A program made the position numbers and the translations under genes. Positions 3,803 to 20,000 of a stretch of 20,000 bases of DNA are shown here, piece after piece (within the stretch, counting starts at the first letter, position 1; every line of letters begins with the position of its first letter). The notes under the pieces were generated by a model. That model was not told where the DNA came from and did not search any database. It saw only the letters and a program-made list of their open reading frames with translations. This DNA is from Thelocarpon superellum (Eukaryota). The stretch lies in contig JAPEUG010000052.1 of the NCBI GenBank assembly GCA_026025795.1, positions 45,492 to 65,491 on the forward strand, in the 5' to 3' direction.

Positions 3803-4294
3803 GCGAAGCCCGCCCACCGAGCACAGGGCTAGCGGGCTTGGCCGCGGGAGGCTACTGAGCCAGCGCTAGCGGTCGAATTGTGACGGCGGAAATGTGCACT
3901 AGAAACGGGATCAGCACGGAATATGACCGGCTCCGTTGTGCAAACACGATCGATGCCCGTCCCGCGGCGGGCAAACGGTGCACCTGAAACATGCACAATC
4001 TCGTATGAGGATCGTATAGGCCTTGCACTATTACCTGTCAGATCAGGTCGCTTGCAACGCATGTTGTCGCCCGAGAGGTCGCCCATGATCTCGCCCATGG
4101 TCGCGGTCATGTCCATACATCGACCGTCTCCTCCGTCCGCGGGGTCCAGAAGGCCATCTGCGTTCACTCCTTCCGCAGACGATCCATCTTCCGCCGTGAC
4201 ATAGCGACTGGGGCGCTTTTTGCTTTCTGGTGCTTCGCAGTCTAGCACTCCACACTCTTTTCCCTCGTGCAACACTCTCTTTCCATCTGGCCAC

Positions 4295-5632
4295 ATGAAG
4301 CATCTCTCCCTCATGCTCGGCCTGCTGGTTGCCGCTGCATCCGCTGCACCCGTGGCCGACGACGGATGCGACATGCAATATGTGATGGTCAATCCCGACG
4401 GAACCCCCGTCTCCCCGTCGTCGAGCGATGCCTCGGTCGCGCCGGCCGACGCTTCGTCCAGTCCCACCTCGGACGCAGCGGCAGGGACGGGGACGGGGAC
4501 GGTGGCACCCGCCGGTCCGAGTGGCACGGCGCCCTCGGATCCGGGCCCAGGCTTCAAGACGGTCTCGTGCAGCGCCGGGTCGTTGGCTCCCGTCGGCATG
4601 GCCAGCTTCCCCATCAACGGCGACAACCTCTGCGCCCCCGAGCCCACGGACCCGGTGCCTGCCGACGCCGTGGTCTACACACCCAGCAGCTCGACCCTGG
4701 ATCTGCTGGACATCCAGCAATGGATCAACAAGGAGGCATCGGCGGGAGCCACGTTCCTCAAGGTGGCTCCGGGTCTCTACGCCTACGGCCCCGGGCCAGT
4801 CCACTCGGCGAGCACCGACACGAATACCGTTGCAGGCGAGAACATCGAGCTGACCGGCAAGGGCGGCATCACGCTCGACCTCCGTGGGGTGACCTTTGTC
4901 GTCACCATCAACCCACAGAACATCGACCAACGACTGGGAGAGATGATCTACGTCGGCTACACCCGCGACATCACCATCCTCGGTGGCACCTACTGGATCG
5001 ACCAGGGCGATCTGTGGTCGTACGCGGAGATGACGTCGATGGACAACCTGGTCGGCACCTTCCAAGTCCCCGAGGGCTTCAACCGCAGCGTCTGGCTCAC
5101 CGCCACCGCCTCGCCCGGCCTGATCATGTGCGCGGACACGTCGGACCCGAAGCACTACACCTTCCCGGAGTGCGGACAGTGGCAGCAGGCCGTCTCCTGG
5201 GACAAGTCGCAGCTCCTCTCGAACGGCATCCTGAAGGTCACCGCGCCCGGCTGGGCCGAGCATCCGAACTTCCGTCCGAACTTTAGCCTCTCGTGTGCCG
5301 TCGGACCACAGACGGCGACGACGATTGGCGCGGAGCATGTCGACAACCTGGTGATCAAGGGCATGACGACCAACGGCAATTTCTGGCAGTATGGACTCGA
5401 TTCATACAACACCGCCGTGCTCGAGGACTGCTGGGTGGTGCAGCCGCCGCGGCGGCCGGGCTATGGCATTGTCGGGCCCCATGGCCCCGTCTGGTTCCAG
5501 GACTCCATCAGCCACGTCAACTTCAACGCGCCGGGCGAGGTCCCGATGACGTACAAGAATTCCTGGTGGCAGGCCTCCTCGAGCCCCTACCAGCTCGAAG
5601 ACATGAACAACGGCACCGTGCCCACGTCCTAG
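4295..5632 (+). CDS. Secreted protein, 445 aa, intronless; probable right-handed parallel beta-helix (pectin lyase-like / GH110-like N-terminal region)
   Basis: ATG at 4295 gives a signal peptide (MKHLSLMLGLLVAAASAAP) followed by a Ser/Pro/Thr/Ala/Gly-rich linker, with strong GC3 codon bias and a TAG stop at 5630-5632. The segment DIQQWINKEASAGATFLKVAPGLY...ITLDLRGVTFVV...RDITILGGTYWID matches the capping-helix plus first-coil pattern of beta-helix carbohydrate-active proteins. The fold assignment is inference. Confidence 0.85.
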   Translation: MKHLSLMLGLLVAAASAAPVADDGCDMQYVMVNPDGTPVSPSSSDASVAPADASSSPTSDAAAGTGTGTVAPAGPSGTAPSDPGPGFKTVSCSAGSLAPVGMASFPINGDNLCAPEPTDPVPADAVVYTPSSSTLDLLDIQQWINKEASAGATFLKVAPGLYAYGPGPVHSASTDTNTVAGENIELTGKGGITLDLRGVTFVVTINPQNIDQRLGEMIYVGYTRDITILGGTYWIDQGDLWSYAEMTSMDNLVGTFQVPEGFNRSVWLTATASPGLIMCADTSDPKHYTFPECGQWQQAVSWDKSQLLSNGILKVTAPGWAEHPNFRPNFSLSCAVGPQTATTIGAEHVDNLVIKGMTTNGNFWQYGLDSYNTAVLEDCWVVQPPRRPGYGIVGPHGPVWFQDSISHVNFNAPGEVPMTYKNSWWQASSSPYQLEDMNNGTVPTS

Positions 5633-8954: not shown

Positions 8955-9481
8955 ATCATGGCCCCCACGTACTGCCCACGCCGGATTGGTTCGTGGACGG
9001 TGGTGGCGTGACCATGGCCGCTCACACGGCAGTTGCAGCCTGATCCTGCGCGACCACCTCCCGCCAAGCACCCTCCCCCGTGCGTCCGAGGTGCGGACGG
9101 GCAACGGTCACGTGGAAGTGGGGGTTCTTTTCAAGTTCCGTCGGACGTCTCAAATTCCTGACGCCATCGGACGTGCATGGTGGCGCACTCGGTGACCAAT
9201 GAAATCGGCAGTCCGTAGACGGGCCGTTGGCGGAGTGCCGCAAGCAGATGGAGAGCGTCATTTGTTTAGCGACGGTGCAGAGCAGGTGCACGGTTGTCGG
9301 AATGGGAGAAGAGGGGAGGGGATGAGGGGAGGGGATGAGGCCAGGCAAGACATCTGTCCGGAATAAAGCCTACCAAGTTTGTTCACTCACGACTCGGATT
9401 ACAATCGCTGGCGTGGAAGGGAACCGCAAGGGACGGACATCCTCTCCCCATACACAGAAGCGTCGTGTCTCCTCCATCGCC

Positions 9482-11432
9482 ATGGGAGGTGGTCCGGTAC
9501 TCCCTCTCGAGCATTGGCCATCGGCCGTGGCGTCGTCGAGTCGTCGAGACAGGTCCCAGGGCCAGCTGGACCAGCTGGACCAGCTGGACCGCCTGGACCA
9601 TCTACGGGGGCTGGTGGACATGGGCAGGTGGGATGCTGATGCCAATCCTCTTTCATGGGCCCCCCCCGTTCCATCACCCGCTGACCGGTCCCGAGGCGCC
9701 CAGCAACGGCATCCGCTTCTCCATCTCCGACCTCGCTCCACCCACCTCCCGTGTCCTGCCCACCGTCTACCTCGGTCGCGTCGGCATCTCCCTCTATGAC
9801 GCGCAATTCGACCCCACCACCGGCGCCCGCCGTCCCATCCCCCCGGCCGTGATCCGCGCCGTCATCCAATCCCTGCGCCGCTTCCAAACCGTCTGCGCCG
9901 ACTTTGGCGTGCGCGACCACCACATCCGCGTCCTGGCCACCGAAGCCACTCGCACCGCCCGGAACTCCCTCGAGTTTCGCCAGGACATCACACACGCCAC
10001 GGGCTGGGCCGTGGAGGTGCTCTCCAAGGAAGAGGAAGGCGAGGTGGGCGCGTGGGGGGTCGCCAGCAGCTTCGCCGACGTGCGGGGCCTGGTCATGGAT
10101 CTCGGCGGCGGGAGCATGCAGATCACCTGGATGATTGCGCACCAGGGGGACGTGCGGACGAGTGCCAAGGGCGCCATCAGCTTTCCCTACGGCGCGGCGG
10201 CCATGGCGAGGCGCTTGGCCGAGGTGGAGCGCGGCAAGGACGAGGACGAGAGGGAAAAGGCCGTGGCCAAGCTGCGCGAGGAGATGAAGACGACTTTCGA
10301 AAAGGCGTACGAGCGTCTGGAGATCCCCGACGAGCTCATCGACGCAGCCAAAGACGAGGGTGGATTCCCCCTCTACCTCTCCGGCGGCGGCTTCCGCGGA
10401 TGGGGGTATCTGCTCCTGTCGCAGAGCCAGGTGCACGGGCACCACTACCCCATCTCCATCATCAACGGCTTCTGGGCGCACAAGGACGACTTTGCCAACA
10501 CCGACCAGCTCAAGGAAGTCGCGCGGACCGCGCACAAGATCTTCCGGGTCTCGGACCGCCGGCGCCAGCAAGTGCCCGCGGTGGCCTTCCTCGTCCACGT
10601 CCTCGCCACCGCCCTCCCGCACGGCATCAAAGACGCTCGCTTCTGCCAAGGCGGCGTGCGTCAAGGGATCCTCTTTCGCGATCTGCCGCGCCGCGTGCGT
10701 GCCGTCCACCCGCTCCCCGTCGCCACGGCGCCGTATGCCGGTCCGTCGGCGGGCGCCATCAGCGCGCTCCTGCGGTCCGCGCTTCCGGCCTCGTGCACGG
10801 ACGACGCCGCGACCTATCCCGCATCGATCAGCGTCCCCTTGGTGCAGGCACTGGCCAACGTCCTCTTTGCGCATGCGGCACTAGGCAAGGAGACCGCCTC
10901 CGTCTGCGCCCTCTACAGCACGAGCACGGGCATCTTGGCCTCGGCGCACGGCATCTCTCACGCCCACCGCGCCATGCTCGCGCTCATGCTCGAGGAGCGT
11001 TTCCCCGGCGAGCTCCCTCCGCGCGACGCCGAGGTCCAAGTGCACCTGGCCGAGCTCTTGCATCCGGCGGAAGTGTGGTGGTGCCGCTTCATCGGCACCG
11101 TGGCATGGCTGGTGGCGGAAGTGTACCCGACGGGGGTGATTGACGCGCGCCGGCCGCGCATGCAGTTCTCGTCGCGGTGGGCCACGAGACTCGGCAAACA
11201 GGGGACGAAGAAGGGGGTGCGGCTGACGGTCCAGGTGCCTGCCACGGGCGACGCGATGACGCACAGAGCGACGATGGAGGACGAGGTGCAACGGATCCGC
11301 AAGGTTGGGAAAAGGAAGAATTGGATCGGAGGGAGACAGGGATGGGGGATGGCCGTGGCGGTAGTGGTGAAAGTGCAGGAGGACTTGGATGCTGCTGTAA
11401 CGCGTGTGAGTCAGACCGAGGACGCCCGGTGA
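9482..11432 (+). CDS. RTG2: Retrograde regulation protein 2 (Ppx/GppA phosphatase family, ASKHA fold); exons 9482-9627 and 9704-11432, 624 aa
   Basis: Splicing a 76-nt intron (9628-9703; GTGGGA...GCTGAC...CAG) restores the family motif GLVDMGSNGIRFSISDL. Other motifs present are ATEATRTARN, EEEGEVGAWG, MDLGGGSMQ, LYLSGGGFRGWG, YPISIING, FRVSDRRRQQVPAVAFL and the C-terminal KVGKRKNWIGG. Confidence 0.93.
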
Positions 11433-12461: not shown

Positions 12462-15010
12462 ATGATGGAGGCCCACCAGAGCGCCATCCAGGCCCTTCGG
12501 TACCTGTCGCCGCTCGCCGTCGCCATCTGCGCCGCGGCCACCAGCGTGGTCGAGGCCTGTCGCGTGGTGCCGGCCCAGCACGCTCGCCAAAGCCACCGGG
12601 CCCGCCCGATCGTCCTTCTGAGACTAGTCGTCGCCCTGCTGGTGCTCTGCTACGTACGTCGCCCCCGCCTGTCTCCCTCGTCCGACGGGCACGCTCACGG
12701 ACTAATGGCGAGCGGTAGATTGCGGAGGTCGTCGCCCTCTTCACCGAGGCCCTGCAGCAGCCGGAACACCAGCCTCCCCACGCACATGTCGTCCAGGTCG
12801 CCGTGCTGTTCTTGGTCTGGGTCGTCATCGGCTTCACGGACCGCGCCCCATGGCACACCTACTTGGGATCCGCCGTCCTCGGACTGGCCTTGGAGCTCCC
12901 CCTGCTCATCCTCGTCGCGCCGCAGGAGCTGCGTGGCACGGCGGGGACGGTCCACTTCGGGCTGCAGTGCACGCGCCTTTTCCTCCTCGCTGCCGTGGCG
13001 GTGGTGACGGCGGCGCAGGCTCTGCGGCATTACGTCACGACCATCTCGCACGAGGCGGCGGAAGCGGAGGCGGAAGCGGAACCGCTCCTGTCGGGTACCA
13101 CGGAAAACGGCACGACGGAAAACGGCACGCAGGACAACAGCGACAGCGAGGTGGAGGAAGAGCGCGATGCGTACGTCAAGAAGCAGCAGAAACGGCGGCT
13201 GGAGGAGGCCGGCAGCTGGTGGAAGTACCTCCAGACCTTCTCCGTCTTCCTGCCCTATCTGATCCCCAAGAACGACCGCAAGGTGCAGCTGTGCATGCTG
13301 GTCACCGTCCTCTGTCTGCTCGCGCGACGCGCCCTCAACGTGCTCCTGCCGCGCCAGCTCGGCATCATCACCAACAGCCTCGTCGCCGGCGGACGCCCCA
13401 TCGCCGAGCTCGGGTGGTGGCTGGTGCTCACGGCGATCGATGGATCGTCCGGCTTGGGTCTGCTCGAGAGTCTCATCAGCATCCCCATCGACCAGTTCTC
13501 CTACCGCCAGGTCACCAACGCCGCCTTTGGGCACGTCATGGGCTTGTCCATTGACTTTCACAATGACCAAGACTCGGCCGAGCTGATGAAGGCCATCGAG
13601 CAGGGACAGTCGCTCAACACCTTGCTCAACACCTTTGTCCAGACCATCGGGCCCACCTTGATCGACCTGGTGGTGGGCGTCGTCTACTTTTACCAGCTCT
13701 TCGACCTCTACGTGTGCCTGGTCGTCCTGCTGGCCGCCCTGACCTTTGTCACGCTGGACGTCAAGACGTCCAACTGGAACTTTGACAACCGCCGGCGCCT
13801 GGTCAAGGCGGTGCGCGAGGAGTCGCGCGTCATGCATCAAGCCGTGCAGGGCTGGCAGACCGTGTCCTACTTCAACCAGTTCGAGCACGAGCGCGCGCAA
13901 TTCGCCGGTGCGCTCGCGGCCTATCAGAAAGCCTCGCGCGTCTACCAGCGGCGCGCCGCCTACACCTATGCCTTTCGCGAGGTCATTCCGCCGCTGACCT
14001 TCTTCGGCGTCGGCGTGCTGATCATCCTGCGCATCTCCCACGGCCAGGCCAGCCCCGGCGACTTTGTCTTCTTCCTGCAGTACTGGGGCATCCTGATGTC
14101 GCCGCTCAAGTACCTCTCGCAGCACTATCGCTGGCTCATGCAGGATCTGATCGACGCCGAGCGCCTGTTGCTGCTGTTGCAGACCAAGCCCACCGTGACG
14201 GACAAAGCCGGCGCGGGCCCGCTGCGGGTGTCCAAGGGCAATGTGCAGTTCACGGGCGTCTCCTTTTCCTACGACCCGCGCAAGACGACGCTCGACCGGA
14301 TCGACCTCGAGGCGAAGCGCGGCAGCACGGTGGCGCTCGTGGGCGAAACGGGCGGGGGCAAGTCGACGATCCTGAAGCTCATCTACCGCTTCTACGACGT
14401 GTCCGCGGGCCAGATCGAGATCGACGGGCAGGACATCCGCGACGTGACGCTCGACAGCCTGCGCAACGCGCTCGGCGTGGTCCCGCAGGACCCGACGCTG
14501 TTCAACACGACCATCATGGAGAACGTGCGGTACGCGCGCCTCGACGCCAGCGACGAAGAGGTGCACGACGTCTGCCGCGCCGCGGCGGTGCACGACAAGA
14601 TCATGACCTTTCCCGACCAGTACCAGTCCAAGGTGGGCAACCGCGGGGTCAAGCTGTCGGGCGGCGAGCTGCAGCGGGTGGCGATTGCGCGCGTGCTGCT
14701 GAAGAACCCGCCCATCGTGCTGCTGGACGAAGCGACCAGCGCCATCGACACCGCGACCGAGGCCTCCATCCAGGCCGCCTTTCAGAAGCTCGTGCGCGGC
14801 CGCACCACCTTTGTCATCGCCCACCGCCTCTCCACCATCCGCAACGCCGACCAGATCGCCGTCATCAAGGAGGGCCGCATCATCGAGCGCGGCACGCACC
14901 ACGCGCTCTTGCAGCTGCGCGGGACCTACCACGGCCTCTGGTCCAAACAGGTGGCCAATGAGTCGGGGGAGACGGCGGGACCGGGCGATGCGCCCACGAC
15001 CCCGACATAG
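12462..15010 (+). CDS. Half-size ABC transporter, ABCB subfamily, HMT1/ABCB6-like (heavy-metal tolerance type); exons 12462-12653 and 12719-15010, 827 aa
   Basis: A 65-nt phase-0 intron (12654-12718; GTACGT...GACTAAT...TAG) joins the hydrophobic exon 1 in frame to the long ORF. The protein has an extra N-terminal hydrophobic domain, a TMD with LSIDFH, Walker A GETGGGKST, Q-loop VVPQD, signature LSGGELQR, Walker B LLDEATSAID and H-loop IAHRLST. The hydrophobic N-terminal extension favours HMT1-type over mitochondrial ATM1. Confidence 0.92.
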
Positions 15011-15254
15011 CATTACGACGCCACGACGACGACATGACGAGAGGAGGCATGGATGAAAGGGCGTGAGAGAGGGCAGAGTTTCCGCTAGACTATCCGACCG
15101 ACCTGGCCCCCAGCCGTAGCGCAAGACGCAGATGAGACGCCGACCATTTGCTAGCTCCGTAGCTCCGCCCGTCCATGTCTTCCTTCCCGCGCCTTCCTTC
15201 CCGCGCCTTCCTTCCCAGCATCCCAGTCGTGACCTGTCTTCCCCATGGCACCAT

Positions 15255-15626
15255 TCACCCCACCAATTTCACCTCGCAATTCATGTTACCGCCTGGTGGC
15301 GGGAGACGCAGAATCCCCTCGAGCTCCGTCGCCATGCCCCACGCGCTGGTAAAGTCGGCTTGGGTGTTGTTGGCGGTGCACTGGATCGGGCTTGTGGCGA
15401 TCGCCGTGAGAGAGACGGCTTCGGTCCAACTCCGGCAATCGCTCAGCCCCGTCACCTCCCACCGCGTGACGAACGGGCCATTCACGCCGTGGCAGTAGCC
15501 TGAGGGATCGACGCCATCGTTCTGTCGTTTGACCACTGCCCGTGGAACCGAGCGCGCGGTCGCCATCGCCACCAAGGCGAGCGCGAACAGGAGCAGGGGC
15601 AGGCGACGAGGTCGCGCGTGGTCCAT
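15255..15626 (-). CDS. Small secreted protein, 123 aa, with a propeptide/Kex2 site and 4 Cys (effector-like)
   Basis: ATG at 15626; signal peptide MDHARPRRLPLLLFALALVAMATA; propeptide RSVPRAVVKR with a dibasic KR site; mature part QNDGVDPSGYC...MNCEVKLVG with 4 cysteines. It converges on the ABC gene across a 244-bp gap. Confidence 0.75.
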   Translation of the reverse strand: MDHARPRRLPLLLFALALVAMATARSVPRAVVKRQNDGVDPSGYCHGVNGPFVTRWEVTGLSDCRSWTEAVSLTAIATSPIQCTANNTQADFTSAWGMATELEGILRLPPPGGNMNCEVKLVG

Positions 15627-16547
15627 CCGCCCGCGACCGACGGACGCGAAAGTGAGCGCCATCTCGCCGACGCGTGCACCGTTCCGTGTTCTTGTCAGGG
15701 GTGGCACCGCAGCTGGATGACAGGATTCGTCAAGAATGGAAGAGGGTCCTCGTCAACGTAGACAGAAGCGCGGATGGCGTGGGCGGCGGAGCGAGACGCA
15801 GGCAGGGGAATATATACCTTGTGGACGGCGACACGAGTCGACGCATCCTCATGCCCCGTCCGTGCGCGTCGAGAACAAGGTTTGTCGGATGACGTTGGCC
15901 CCTGGCAAGTCGTCTTTCGCCCTCATGCGCCGCCCCGATGGCCGACCAAGGCCACCGTCGATCCAGGCGCAGAGGGGATGAGGGAGCTCAGATGTACGAG
16001 GACCCGCATGCATGCGGTGCGCATGTTTGATGCATGAGATGACGGCGTCGAGGCGAGGCGGGTGCATGGCCATGCACGTCCGACGAGGCAATTATGCAGC
16101 CATGCGCGATTGTGGAGCATGGAGCCAGCGGCTGCCGGCACGGCTCCTGTGCACCGCGCGTTGCACGCTAAGAATACTCTCGAGTGCAACGTCTCGACAT
16201 CATACGGACGGTAGCGAAACATTGTTTGTGTCAGGGATTAGTGCGAGGCATAGCGGGAGATGCGCCTATGCGCCTATGCGCATGACACGCGTACGAGGAG
16301 GAGTTTAGGTTAGTCGGTGGCATATGCGAGGGGATTCATGGGATTCATGGGAACTGGCGGGAGTTTCTTGATTCGTTTCTAATGTCTGGGTGGGTGCATG
16401 CTTCGTCTAAGTACACTGCGGTGTGACTGTCCTCGTCACGTGTCTCGTCGTTGAACCGACCGTCCATGACTCGCCCGTCGCTGGAAATCATGCCATAGTA
16501 TCTCCACTTCGATGGCTGGCTGGTGGCGCCATGACATCGTTCCACCT

Positions 16548-17930
16548 CTAGGAATCGGCCTCTTCGTTAAGGTTGACGAAGTTCCAGTGGCTGGTATAGC
16601 CGTTGATGTCGTATGTATCGAAAGGGTCTCCCTCAAATGGATCGAAGATCATCCCAAAATTCTCGTCTGAAGAGTGCGGGACGAAATGATCCAGGTATGG
16701 GTAATCAGATCCGGACTTCGCGAATTGCTCGAGGACTGTGTATCCCGGCTCGGATTCTTTCTGCTTCCGATTCTCCTCCTCGACTTTGGCCCGCAACTCC
16801 TCAACATCCTGCTCGAAGCTCTCGCGGATGTCTGCAAGTTCGTTGACTGGGGCGTCGAGTAGACTAGCAATCACAGGGGAGATGGCGGAGTGGATGCTCG
16901 TGCTTCCATGGTGACTGGATGGATCGTTATTGTCGCTGTCGAGGTGAGAACCGGTCGTGACTGTGGCGGCTTGGGGAGGCTGCACGAGTTGAGGAAGCGC
17001 CATTGATGATTGAGAGAGCGTTGCTGCAGTAGGTCCGGCTACAAACGCATCTCCCAGGGCGGGCAATCCGGATTGAAGCGGATTGGTGATCAACATGTTC
17101 TGATTGGCGATTTCGGCACCAAAGAGAAGGGACTCTGCACCGACCGCCGGGATGTACCCTTCTTCGAAGCTGTTCTGGATGACATCGTGTACGGAGCAGA
17201 CTGCGGTGACATCGCCGTTGTCGAACGCGTCTGCCTCAGGAATGAAGGCGCGGCGCAGCTTGCGGTCCCCGTGCTCGTCGATATCGAATCGCCAGCCGAG
17301 CATCGCGATGTATTCCGCAGGCTGTACAATCCCGATGAACGGCGCATTGATGGCCAAGAAGAAGTCCAGAGGGGCTTGATGCTTGCCTTGGCTGTCACGA
17401 ATCACCGAATACGCTTTCGCAAGGATGGCCCACTTCGCTTTGAATGGGTCGTTTTTCCAAAGGAAAGTCAGAAATGCGGAGATATCCTTCTGCTGGAAAG
17501 TGGAAAACATCGAGCCGTAGTAGCCTGAGGAAAATGAGTCTCCATCTCCCTTCTGTTTCACGAGAACTGATAACTTACTTCGGTAGGCAATCCACGAGTT
17601 AAGAGGGCGAACCTTCTTGCTTGGATTGCGGGGGGGCGGTACGACGAAGCGTGGCTTTGACATCGGCTTACCAGCGGCAGACTTCTTGGTGCCTTTCTTC
17701 TTCGTGTCCCGCGATTTTGTGTCCGCATGGACTGCTGGAGGAGGCATTCGAGCCGCTTCACCGTTCTCGGTCGAAAGCGTCGGCGCGATGCTCATGATGT
17801 AGGCCGTCATGACCCCGTTAGGATCGAGCGCTTGGAGCTGTTCTGGAGTCATGGAGTTCACCAGGTCTCGGATGTTGGGCGGCGGAATGGCGGGGTCCTG
17901 CGCTTGCGGGAATTGGAGACCGTTCTGCAT
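16548..17930 (-). CDS. MAT1-1-1: Mating-type protein MAT1-1-1 (alpha-box transcription factor); exons 17930-17579 and 17524-16548, 442 aa
   Basis: Alpha box KKVRPLNSWIAYRS|YYGSMFSTFQQKDISAFLTFLWKNDPFKAKWAILAKAYSVIRD...APLDFFL...IGIV.P..Y...LGW. The 54-nt intron (17578-17525; GTAAGT...ACTCAT...CAG) splits the Ser codon at the position conserved in Pezizomycotina. The start context is GCCGCCATG and the C-terminal tail is acidic/aromatic. Confidence 0.96.
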   Translation of the reverse strand: MQNGLQFPQAQDPAIPPPNIRDLVNSMTPEQLQALDPNGVMTAYIMSIAPTLSTENGEAARMPPPAVHADTKSRDTKKKGTKKSAAGKPMSKPRFVVPPPRNPSKKVRPLNSWIAYRSKLSVLVKQKGDGDSFSSGYYGSMFSTFQQKDISAFLTFLWKNDPFKAKWAILAKAYSVIRDSQGKHQAPLDFFLAINAPFIGIVQPAEYIAMLGWRFDIDEHGDRKLRRAFIPEADAFDNGDVTAVCSVHDVIQNSFEEGYIPAVGAESLLFGAEIANQNMLITNPLQSGLPALGDAFVAGPTAATLSQSSMALPQLVQPPQAATVTTGSHLDSDNNDPSSHHGSTSIHSAISPVIASLLDAPVNELADIRESFEQDVEELRAKVEEENRKQKESEPGYTVLEQFAKSGSDYPYLDHFVPHSSDENFGMIFDPFEGDPFDTYDINGYTSHWNFVNLNEEADS

Positions 17931-18381
17931 GGCGGCGGTAGGTGTCGGCGAAGCCGACTTCGCAGCGAAGTCTAGCGTTGAAGTCTTTTGCCCTGTGCGG
18001 TCCACGATGAAAGCGATCACGGTTTGTACTGATTCAAAGGTCTAGTGCTGGGAGGTGGAAAGAGTGGAAGAGACCCGCGAAGGTGGCATCGCCGATGGAA
18101 AGAGTCGAGGACTGGAAAGGTAAGATGATCCAAGTCGAAAGTCCTCCTCTAGTTGTGGGTATATCCCGGTGGTTGGTCTTACGCTCAACGAACAAAGAAG
18201 TGTACAATTTCCTAAAGCAGAACACTCTCGTTTCATTGAATGATTCATAGGCCATCGGTGCTTCATTCACAGCTCTTGGTATTTCTAGCAAAGTCCTTGT
18301 GCCTATCTTTCTCCGATCTGACGCCATCACTCTTACTATCGATGCCGGTGGACCCTGCTTCCCCTTCTTCTCTACTTTTCC

Positions 18382-19571
18382 TCAATCCAGGCTGACACGA
18401 CGAACTGCCAAGACCGGGAAAACCTGCCCACGGGTGCGGACGTATATGCGGTGGGGAAGACTGCGGTCGCTCCAATCTGCAGTTCTTGCTCAGCGTTGCA
18501 TTTGCAAATTGTGCATCTTACTTACGATACCAGTAAGACAAGTCCTCTATCGTTGCCTCTCGACAGTACTTTCCTTGTCCCGTATACTATGTGTCCTCAG
18601 CATATGAATCCATACCTGATAAGAGGAGCGTACGGTGCTAAAAGGGCTCGGGTGGAGGTACATCTGATCTGTCAGCGGTGGTAATTTATGCTTCAGCGGG
18701 AATCCTACCTGGCCGAGCTCGGGGCGGAGATTTGCTGCGCGGCTCTCTGAGATCATAGAAGTCTGGACATAGTCAGTCGTACTGGTGCAGGTGGCTTTGC
18801 AACTTCATGTTTTGACGTACCTTCATATTTGAGGAAGGGTACTTCTGAGAAAGTTCCGTTAACAAGAGCCATCAGCGATACCAAGTGACAGACTTACTTT
18901 CAAGATGTCTGCTCGAATCTTCTTTGTCTGCTCCTTCCAGAGGATCATCAAGTTGGCTGCGCCAACAGGGAGTAGCTGGGTTGTCACTGTAGGAGCTCCT
19001 CCCGCACGCTCCAATAGAGCTGGCCCGAAGGAAGAGCCCGGTGCTCCATTGTGGAAGAACTGGCCCCATGGCTTGTACTGTGCCTGGTAAGAAGGGCGTG
19101 TGTAGCCACGGAGACGTCGATCTAAGATCCGCCCAATCTTCTCGATCCGTTCGTGTCCCGCGAGGATGAATTTGACGTCGTCGGAAAGCTGCCGAACGCC
19201 AGCAAAGAACCCCGCCCGATAGCCTTCGGATGGAAAGAGATGCTGATTGCAAACAAGTCGGTTGACTTCGGCCGTGATCTTGGGCACGGTGGCGATCATA
19301 CCCCAAACGCAGAACTCGGACGGGTGCGACCCGACGTGGTCCCGGAGGATGAGGAGATGCTTGATGATTTCGTACAGGAAGTTCACGCTGCAGGGCTTCG
19401 TGGTAGTACAGGACCCATCTGAACTAGTCAGCGGTGGGAATATGGTATGGGGCACAGAGACTGACTGGACTCCATTCCTCGATCGAAGCGGTCGTAATCG
19501 GCATCTATCTGACAATCCTGTTTCGCAAACCCACACGGACAGTAATCGTCGGCAGTCAAGACCAAAGCCAT
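18382..19571 (-). CDS. Auxiliary MAT1-1 idiomorph gene (no HMG or alpha box; MAT1-1-7/MAT1-1-2-like position), 7 exons, 296 aa
   Basis: Exons 19571-19466, 19418-18898, 18844-18821, 18762-18709, 18663-18634, 18586-18526 and 18476-18382. The six introns are 47, 53, 58, 45, 47 and 49 nt, with donors GTCAGT, GTAAGT, GTACGT, GTAGGA, GTACGC and GTAAGT, branch-like sites and YAG acceptors. They splice into one frame (MALVLTADDYCPCG...YKPWGQFFHNG...MYLHPSPFST...VRRVSLD*). The gene lies directly upstream of and co-oriented with MAT1-1-1. Confidence 0.78.
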
Positions 19572-20000
19572 GATTGCAAGTGCTGATCGGTAGAAGAACC
19601 CTCTGCTGAGACACAGGAGACGGGCGCAGTGGAGAGTCACGGAGGGAGGTTATCGCGTGTCAGCGTGGACGAGAGTGTTGGGAAAGAGTGGAAGCGGCAT
19701 CACACACGGGGTCGGCTTACTGCAAGAATGTTACCGCAACGTCTGCGTCGAGCGGTCCAACGGACGCATTCAAGCAGCCAGGACAATACCACCGCGCGGG
19801 ATCGCGGTGAAGGCCCGCGGAAGCAGAGGTTGGCGCGGGGCAGTGAAGGAGGGACATTTCTTTGTCCGGACCCTCCGCGCGCCCCCGACGTCACCCACGC
19901 AGCCGCTAAGCTGCTCCGGGCCAATTACAGTTTCGGGACGACCCGTCTATCCGCCTGGCTGGCTGTCTGCCCGTCTGTCTGGCGGCCGGTCGCTTATGCA

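Follow-up and report, generated by a model that had tools for sequence, protein, structure and literature searches.

A seven-exon gene upstream of MAT1-1-1 in Thelocarpon superellum is probably a divergent member of the MAT1-1-7 family

The mating-type locus of Thelocarpon superellum carries a seven-exon gene immediately upstream of the alpha-box gene MAT1-1-1. We conclude, with a probability of roughly 80%, that this gene is the second gene of the idiomorph in a MAT1-1 isolate and a divergent member of the MAT1-1-7 family. Most likely it is the expected gene in the expected place, from a family that is already described and little studied. Beyond a divergent member, the window (the whole 20,000-nucleotide stretch of contig JAPEUG010000052.1 that was analysed) supplies that family with a residue-level map of conservation, the first predicted fold for its core, and a plan of seven exons in which a 30-nt microexon is conserved. 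The gene models of the family are known to be inconsistent at the C terminus; these additions aid annotation and nomenclature only. The family is now also placed in Candelaria, for which we found no earlier report in the literature searched.

Results

Structure of the seven-exon gene

The gene runs on the minus strand from 19571 to 18382, a span of 1190 nt, and its joined exons comprise 891 nt, encoding 296 amino acids and a stop codon. Six introns of 47, 53, 58, 45, 47, and 49 nt interrupt the frame in phases 1,0,0,0,0,1; all of them begin with GT and end with AG, and each carries a branch-like site 13 to 19 nt from its end. We confirmed that this model, as read from the DNA, is genuine. The sequence-only reading had proposed six canonical introns, microexons of 24 and 30 nt, and a 296-aa frame ending about 450 bp before MAT1-1-1, and this description stands: the introns are GT-AG introns of 45 to 58 nt, and the stop lies 451 nt ahead of the first in-frame ATG of MAT1-1-1.

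All exons are given here on the minus strand and, where possible, beside their counterparts at a syntenic locus from a metagenome (L003, described below). Exon 1 (19466..19571, 106 nt, with the ATG at 19571) encodes a short Y..Y/FxRG block that is also found in homologs P0002, P0004, P0005, P0008, and P0029, and it is followed by a phase-1 intron (19465-19419) that is likewise present in L003. Exon 2 (18898..19418, 521 nt), which is single-copy in the genome, encodes the conserved, predicted all-helical core of the family with the invariant residues R89, L96, W153, G163, and Q183 (full-length numbering). Exon 3 (18821..18844) is a microexon of 24 nt, or 21 nt with a second acceptor, and its L003 counterpart has 33 nt and equal phases. 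Exon 4 (18709..18762) has 54 nt (60 nt in L003), while exon 5 (18634..18663) is a 30-nt microexon containing the PxPF motif of full-length homologs; exon 5 of L003 is also 30 nt long, with phase 0/0. Exon 6 (18526..18586, 61 nt; 70 nt and phase 1 in L003) is followed by a phase-1 intron (18525-18477), and exon 7 (18382..18476, 95 nt) ends with the stop at 18384-18382.

The predicted junctions downstream of exon 2 are partly uncertain. Intron 4 (18708-18664, 45 nt) is stop-free, in frame, and has a weak donor, making it the least certain intron of the model; intron 2 has an alternative acceptor 3 nt further on (18845 or 18842), and intron 6 has an alternative donor 4 nt further on (18525 or 18521). 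A strict intron filter, devised once the donors of the gene had been seen, gave seven candidates (six distinct acceptors) in the sense direction, none in the antisense direction, and at most two in any of 1000 dinucleotide-type shuffles. The reading frame of exon 7 was the best of three against the C termini of homologs, if weakly so (36/3000 shuffles versus 149 and 157). The C-terminal third of the model beat 1996 of 2000 shuffles against the homolog profile, and the C-terminal profile placed the model 28th among 54 scored splice paths; sequence support for this third of the protein is weak. At the start of intron 2, a V-S/R/C/G dipeptide read-through occurs in 28 of 42 homologs, which may be a loose sign that the intron 2 donor is shared.

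The mating-type locus

MAT1-1-1 (16548..17930, minus strand, 442 aa) lies downstream of the seven-exon gene on the same strand and encodes an alpha box (PF04769, E 2.7e-33). Its conserved alpha-box intron (17578-17525) has 54 nt and is in frame and stop-free; if retained, it would add 18 residues within the alpha box. On the other side of the seven-exon gene, the final 127 nt of the contig (19874..20000) recur without a mismatch as the opening 127 nt of contig C440, and of no other contig. C440 carries an APN2-like gene that faces the locus about 4.3 kb from the ATG of the seven-exon gene (named from PF03372, a weak GRF match, and inspection by eye) and, beyond it, a COX13-like gene identified by eye. 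SLA2, identified by an ANTH match and, by eye, a typical C terminus, is on the same contig as the window, about 17.7 kb past MAT1-1-1. Across the contig overlap, the gene order is thus APN2, seven-exon gene, MAT1-1-1, SLA2. The proposal that an auxiliary gene occupies the MAT1-1 slot is borne out by this position between APN2 and MAT1-1-1, with SLA2 beyond. So is the proposed lack of an HMG or alpha box: exon 2 and its reading frame matched 0 Pfam families, and hence contain neither domain.

The genome gave eight HMG matches, a count that is a lower bound, and on reading none of them was MAT1-2-1-like. Therefore, the species seems to be heterothallic and the isolate MAT1-1.

A conserved family of homologs

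We searched 1.84 billion representatives with exon 2 using phmmer and obtained 34 matches at E<=0.001, 31 of which have common motif blocks; the matches P0007, P0009, and P0018 were discarded as repeats or CUB-domain chance matches. Profile searches added seven and then four homologs, bringing the family to 42 homologs, or 43 rows with the window protein. They span Lecanoromycetes (Xylographa), Chaetothyriales (Cyphellophora), and Candelaria. Those with names are Cyphellophora europaea HMPREF1541_02525 (E 8.7e-28), Candelaria pacifica M1812_005719, and proteins of four Xylographa species, all of them annotated as hypothetical or uncharacterized. None of the 42 homologs bears the name MAT1-1-7, -4, -8, or -9. 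The word-based profile search regained only 2 of 31 input homologs and so misses most known members, for which reason the absence of MAT names says little. The gene ids of candidate named members, including that of Cyphellophora europaea, were not found in the literature searched (text and two supplements). A word-indexed search with exon 2 alone gave 177 candidates and none at E<=1. In the ESM Atlas, exon 2 gave no usable match, and the Cyphellophora protein gave only sub-0.9 bacterial leads with TM<=0.29 by query.

Over exon 2, the window protein is about 21 to 33% identical to its homologs. R89, L96, W153, G163, and Q183 are invariant in all 43 rows, and F97, F156, P162, and P186 are retained in 42 of the 43. 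The window protein joins no supported group in a quick tree, where its branch is long (1.63).

The Cyphellophora-like homologs (P0021 and P0034-P0040) are annotated as single ORFs of about 290 to 330 aa, which suggests that this lineage lost the introns of the gene.

A syntenic homolog in a metagenome

A scan of metagenomes yielded one locus, L003, out of 100 pattern matches; of five viral contigs, none had a family locus. L003 is the one homolog of 42 in which synteny was examined, and here the homolog and an alpha-box gene downstream of it share a strand, with 362 nt between them. Intron 1 is at 67-117 of this locus, and downstream of exon 2 there are ten intron candidates at five places, which permit a seven-exon plan with phases 1,0,0,0,0,1 and a 30-nt exon 5. 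Introns 1, 2, 5, and 6 of the two genes fall in matching alignment columns. We note that the exons of L003 were picked with knowledge of the window model, and the plan thus supports the splicing model, short of proof. The C termini of the two proteins gave no alignment above chance (1789/5000 shuffles).

Predicted fold and a proposed mechanism

The predicted exon-2 core (pLDDT 82.5, pTM 0.68) consists of six helices, three of them long. A Foldseek search with this core gave no match at E<=0.001, the best VIA-align hit against the PDB reached Z 8.4 over 68 residues, which is under the meaningful level for helical bundles, and the best sequence-profile match in the PDB (E 0.009) was a helical stretch. 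The core is predicted to fold as a generic helical bundle. Its conserved residues are mostly structural, and we saw no DNA-binding or catalytic signature.

A mechanism may be drawn by analogy from MAT1-1-2 and MAT1-1-5, which occupy a like slot. In Fusarium graminearum, two-hybrid assays reportedly show Mat1-1-2 binding every other MAT protein (PMC3691137); SMR1 is described as increasing after fertilisation (PMC3125171); and mutants of MAT1-1-2 and MAT1-1-5 are described as arresting after fertilisation and before asci (PMC6562746). We postulate that the seven-exon protein could be a non-DNA-binding, helical-bundle cofactor or adaptor. It would be made after fertilisation and act in the dikaryotic stage, where it would bind both the alpha-box protein and the HMG protein of the partner via a conserved surface around W153-G163/Q183, and it would be required for young fruiting bodies to progress to asci. 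We regard this mechanism as tentative, at slightly under even odds. The literature searched reported no function for the MAT1-1-7-type family.

Discussion

Membership in the MAT1-1-7 family

The sequence family of the seven-exon gene is very probably the one named MAT1-1-7, judging from slot, orientation, taxa, and architecture, with the named proteins compared by description. The gene lies between APN2 and MAT1-1-1 and is transcribed in the direction of MAT1-1-1. Its homologs include four Xylographa species from Lecanoromycetes and Cyphellophora europaea from Eurotiomycetes. At 1190 nt with six introns, it agrees with an architecture of about 1 to 1.4 kb, several short introns, and a variable C terminus, and it is free of an alpha box, HMG domain, or homeodomain. 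In Lepraria, apn2, MAT1-1-7, and MAT1-1-1 are given as co-directional and followed by sla2, with the discussion of that paper wording the position differently (PMC11515122). The Letharia paper reports MAT1-1-7 from most Lecanoromycetes and also from Eurotiomycetes (10.1101/2020.12.18.423428), and the gene is reported from Cladonia too (PMC6652019). Lichen auxiliary MAT1-1 genes are mostly 1.05 to 1.38 kb long with one to seven introns (PMC6414310 Table S3), and the C-terminal gene models of MAT1-1-7 are described as variable (10.1101/2020.12.18.423428; PMC10512270). Like MAT1-1-7 of Letharia, Cladonia, and Stereocaulon/Lepraria, the seven-exon gene is upstream of MAT1-1-1, co-directional, and on the APN2 side; it also resembles the Lecanoromycete gene in its length of about 1.2 kb, its numerous short introns, a single large early exon that is conserved, and a C terminus that varies. 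Unlike in Lecanoromycetes, SLA2 here lies about 17.7 kb off with other genes between.

The family has collected several names. Genes called MAT1-1-4 in Onygenales and Chaetothyriales ("MAT1-1-5" of Teixeira et al.), MAT1-1-8 in Botryosphaeriales, and MAT1-1-9 elsewhere belong with MAT1-1-7 according to the Letharia paper, which unites MAT1-1-4, -7, -9, and perhaps -8 (10.1101/2020.12.18.423428; PMC10512270). Cyphellophora europaea, whose protein is a clear homolog of the seven-exon gene, reportedly has MAT1-1 plus a "MAT1-1-5" akin to the MAT1-1-4 of Onygenales (PMC5358931), and in Exophiala viscosa a "MAT1-1-4" is described beside APN2, between it and the alpha-box gene (10.1101/2021.12.03.471027). 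Two differences are apparent: the Cyphellophora-like homologs seem intron-poor compared with the six introns found here, and the MAT1-1-8 of Phyllosticta, to which its paper assigns no known function, is reported to be oriented opposite to MAT1-1-1, whereas the seven-exon gene is co-directional with it (10.1101/2020.04.14.040725). The metallothionein-like MAT1-1-4 of Pyrenopeziza is ruled out by the 8 Cys in 296 aa, the lack of a Pfam match, and the helical bundle. The suggestion of a new MAT gene gives way to membership in a widespread family, from Lecanoromycetes through Chaetothyriales to Candelaria, that fits MAT1-1-7 as published.

Relation to MAT1-1-2 and alternative explanations

The sequence-only reading had also linked the gene to MAT1-1-2 through the motif PWGQFF. 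The motif is real, and its surroundings are the best-conserved block of the homolog family; its likeness to a MAT1-1-2 motif is only presumed. The link itself gained no support from Pfam: PF17043, the MAT1-1-2 model, matched 0 of 43 family sequences (0/32 and 0/11; the hmmscan filters discard anything weaker than about E 0.1), yielded no genomic candidate, and was carried by no homolog match from the phmmer or profile searches. MAT1-1-2 (SMR1, matA-2) is nonetheless the working model for how the seven-exon gene acts; both would be second genes of the MAT1-1 idiomorph with no known DNA-binding domain, and both may have a conserved Pro-Gly. Several papers define MAT1-1-2 solely by HPG or PPF residues with a common middle proline (PMC3961304, PMC3778014, PMC3125171, PMC7162830, 10.1101/2020.01.22.915686). 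Residues of this type recur in our family (P162 in 42/43, G163 in 43/43, H158 in 23/43, and P152 in 28/43): a near-invariant Pro-Gly is preceded, four places earlier, by a histidine in 23 of 43 rows, which would be compatible with the MAT1-1-2 motif but not diagnostic of it.

One alternative is that the family is a remote homolog of the Sordariomycete MAT1-1-2, and perhaps of the Leotiomycete MAT1-1-5 and -6, such that one ancestral second MAT1-1 gene goes under many names. The similar slot beside MAT1-1-1, the missing DNA-binding domain, and the residues of HPG/PPF type are in its favour, as is Figure S2 of Pizarro et al. (PMC6414310), in which MAT1-1-5, MAT1-1-6, the Diplodia and Coccidioides "MAT1-1-4" genes, and the lichen genes come directly after MAT1-1-2, an observation of label order only. 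The same paper terms the grouping of lichen genes with MAT1-1-4 unsupported (PMC6414310). MAT1-1-5 (Sclerotinia, Botrytis), reported to be required for ascoma maturation (PMC6562746), and MAT1-1-6 (Pseudogymnoascus) resemble the seven-exon gene, by description, as auxiliary MAT1-1 genes with no known domain. Against this stand the PF17043 results and the fact that H, P, and G are common residues, and we consider such homology possible but unlikely. A similarly unlikely extension would have MAT1-1-7/-8/-9, the Leotiomycete MAT1-1-5/-6, and MAT1-1-2 form one ancient helical-bundle family that has been the second core MAT1-1 gene since the early Pezizomycotina; its W-x-Q-F...A-P-G block would then be the HPG/PPF motif. 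The literature searched held no paper that ties MAT1-1-2 to MAT1-1-7/-8/-9 or applies structure prediction to them. Were a profile match to MAT1-1-2 or MAT1-1-5 to be found, several "lineage-specific" mating genes would collapse into one, and the lichen and black-yeast genes would gain a tested function; were there one ancient family, the genetics of SMR1/matA-2 would extend to lichens, to black yeasts, and to Candelaria and other small lineages.

Other explanations would alter the role or the identity of the gene. The protein might be a small enzyme, a ligand-binding domain, or a novel-fold DNA or RNA binder rather than an adaptor, given that R89, Q183, and W153 (43/43) could line a pocket and that the window protein has a basic pI of 9.1. 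However, most invariant positions carry hydrophobic or structural residues (L, F, W, P, G), with no acidic, His, or Cys set among them, many homologs read as acidic, and the fold matches are generic helical bundles, so that we hold this to be improbable. Less probable again, the gene could represent a distinct auxiliary MAT family, so far unnamed, that happens to sit in the MAT1-1-7 slot. No retrieved member has a MAT name, no Parmeliaceae, Cladoniaceae, Onygenales, or Botryosphaeriales protein was identified among the matches, and unrelated auxiliary genes are reported from Leptogium and Dibaeis, but those genes are placed on the SLA2 side in the same source (10.1101/2020.12.18.423428). Moreover, our family is found in both classes reported for MAT1-1-7 and matches it in slot, orientation, size, and intron load, and the missing names weigh little given the poor recovery of the word-based searches. 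The least probable of these explanations, to which we give very little weight, is that the gene is a flanking gene or is in decay, occurs in both mating types, and has no role in mating. Truncated copies of MAT1-1-8 are reported to persist in MAT1-2 strains of Phyllosticta and its relatives (10.1101/2020.04.14.040725), and the MAT region is loosened here, with about 17.7 kb from MAT1-1-1 to SLA2. Yet the frame is intact over six introns, the invariant residues of the family are retained, the gene is single-copy, and the L003 homolog also abuts an alpha-box gene. We therefore favour, on balance, the second idiomorph gene of the MAT1-1-7 family.

Further observations on the region and its source

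The expansion of about 17.7 kb on the SLA2 side contains an RTG2-like gene (9339-11432) and a half ABC transporter (12719-15010). Two ORFs, at 4205-5632 (plus strand) and 15255-15752 (minus strand), have no Pfam match and, on reading, each has a signal-peptide-like stretch. Just past the 3' end of SLA2, an ORF with about six tandem, 7-residue, coiled-coil-like repeats (L023:8933-9601, minus strand) overlaps positions 1-109 of the window.

Contig depth in the source run was 116-126 over both MAT genes (16474-19556), compared with 177-183 at 14001-15858. The break in the assembly, where the two contigs overlap by 127 nt, falls about 300 nt upstream of the seven-exon gene. The drop in depth and the break could mark the edge of the idiomorph in a sample of both mating types, with the caveats that GC also drops from about 0.66 to about 0.52 and that contig depth is not a share of cells. 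Finally, two moss metagenomes of one study (runs X2 and X3) contain near-identical pieces of MAT1-1-1 and the seven-exon gene (17522-19761) at a depth of 2-3, a hint that this fungus, or a very close relative, is present on moss.
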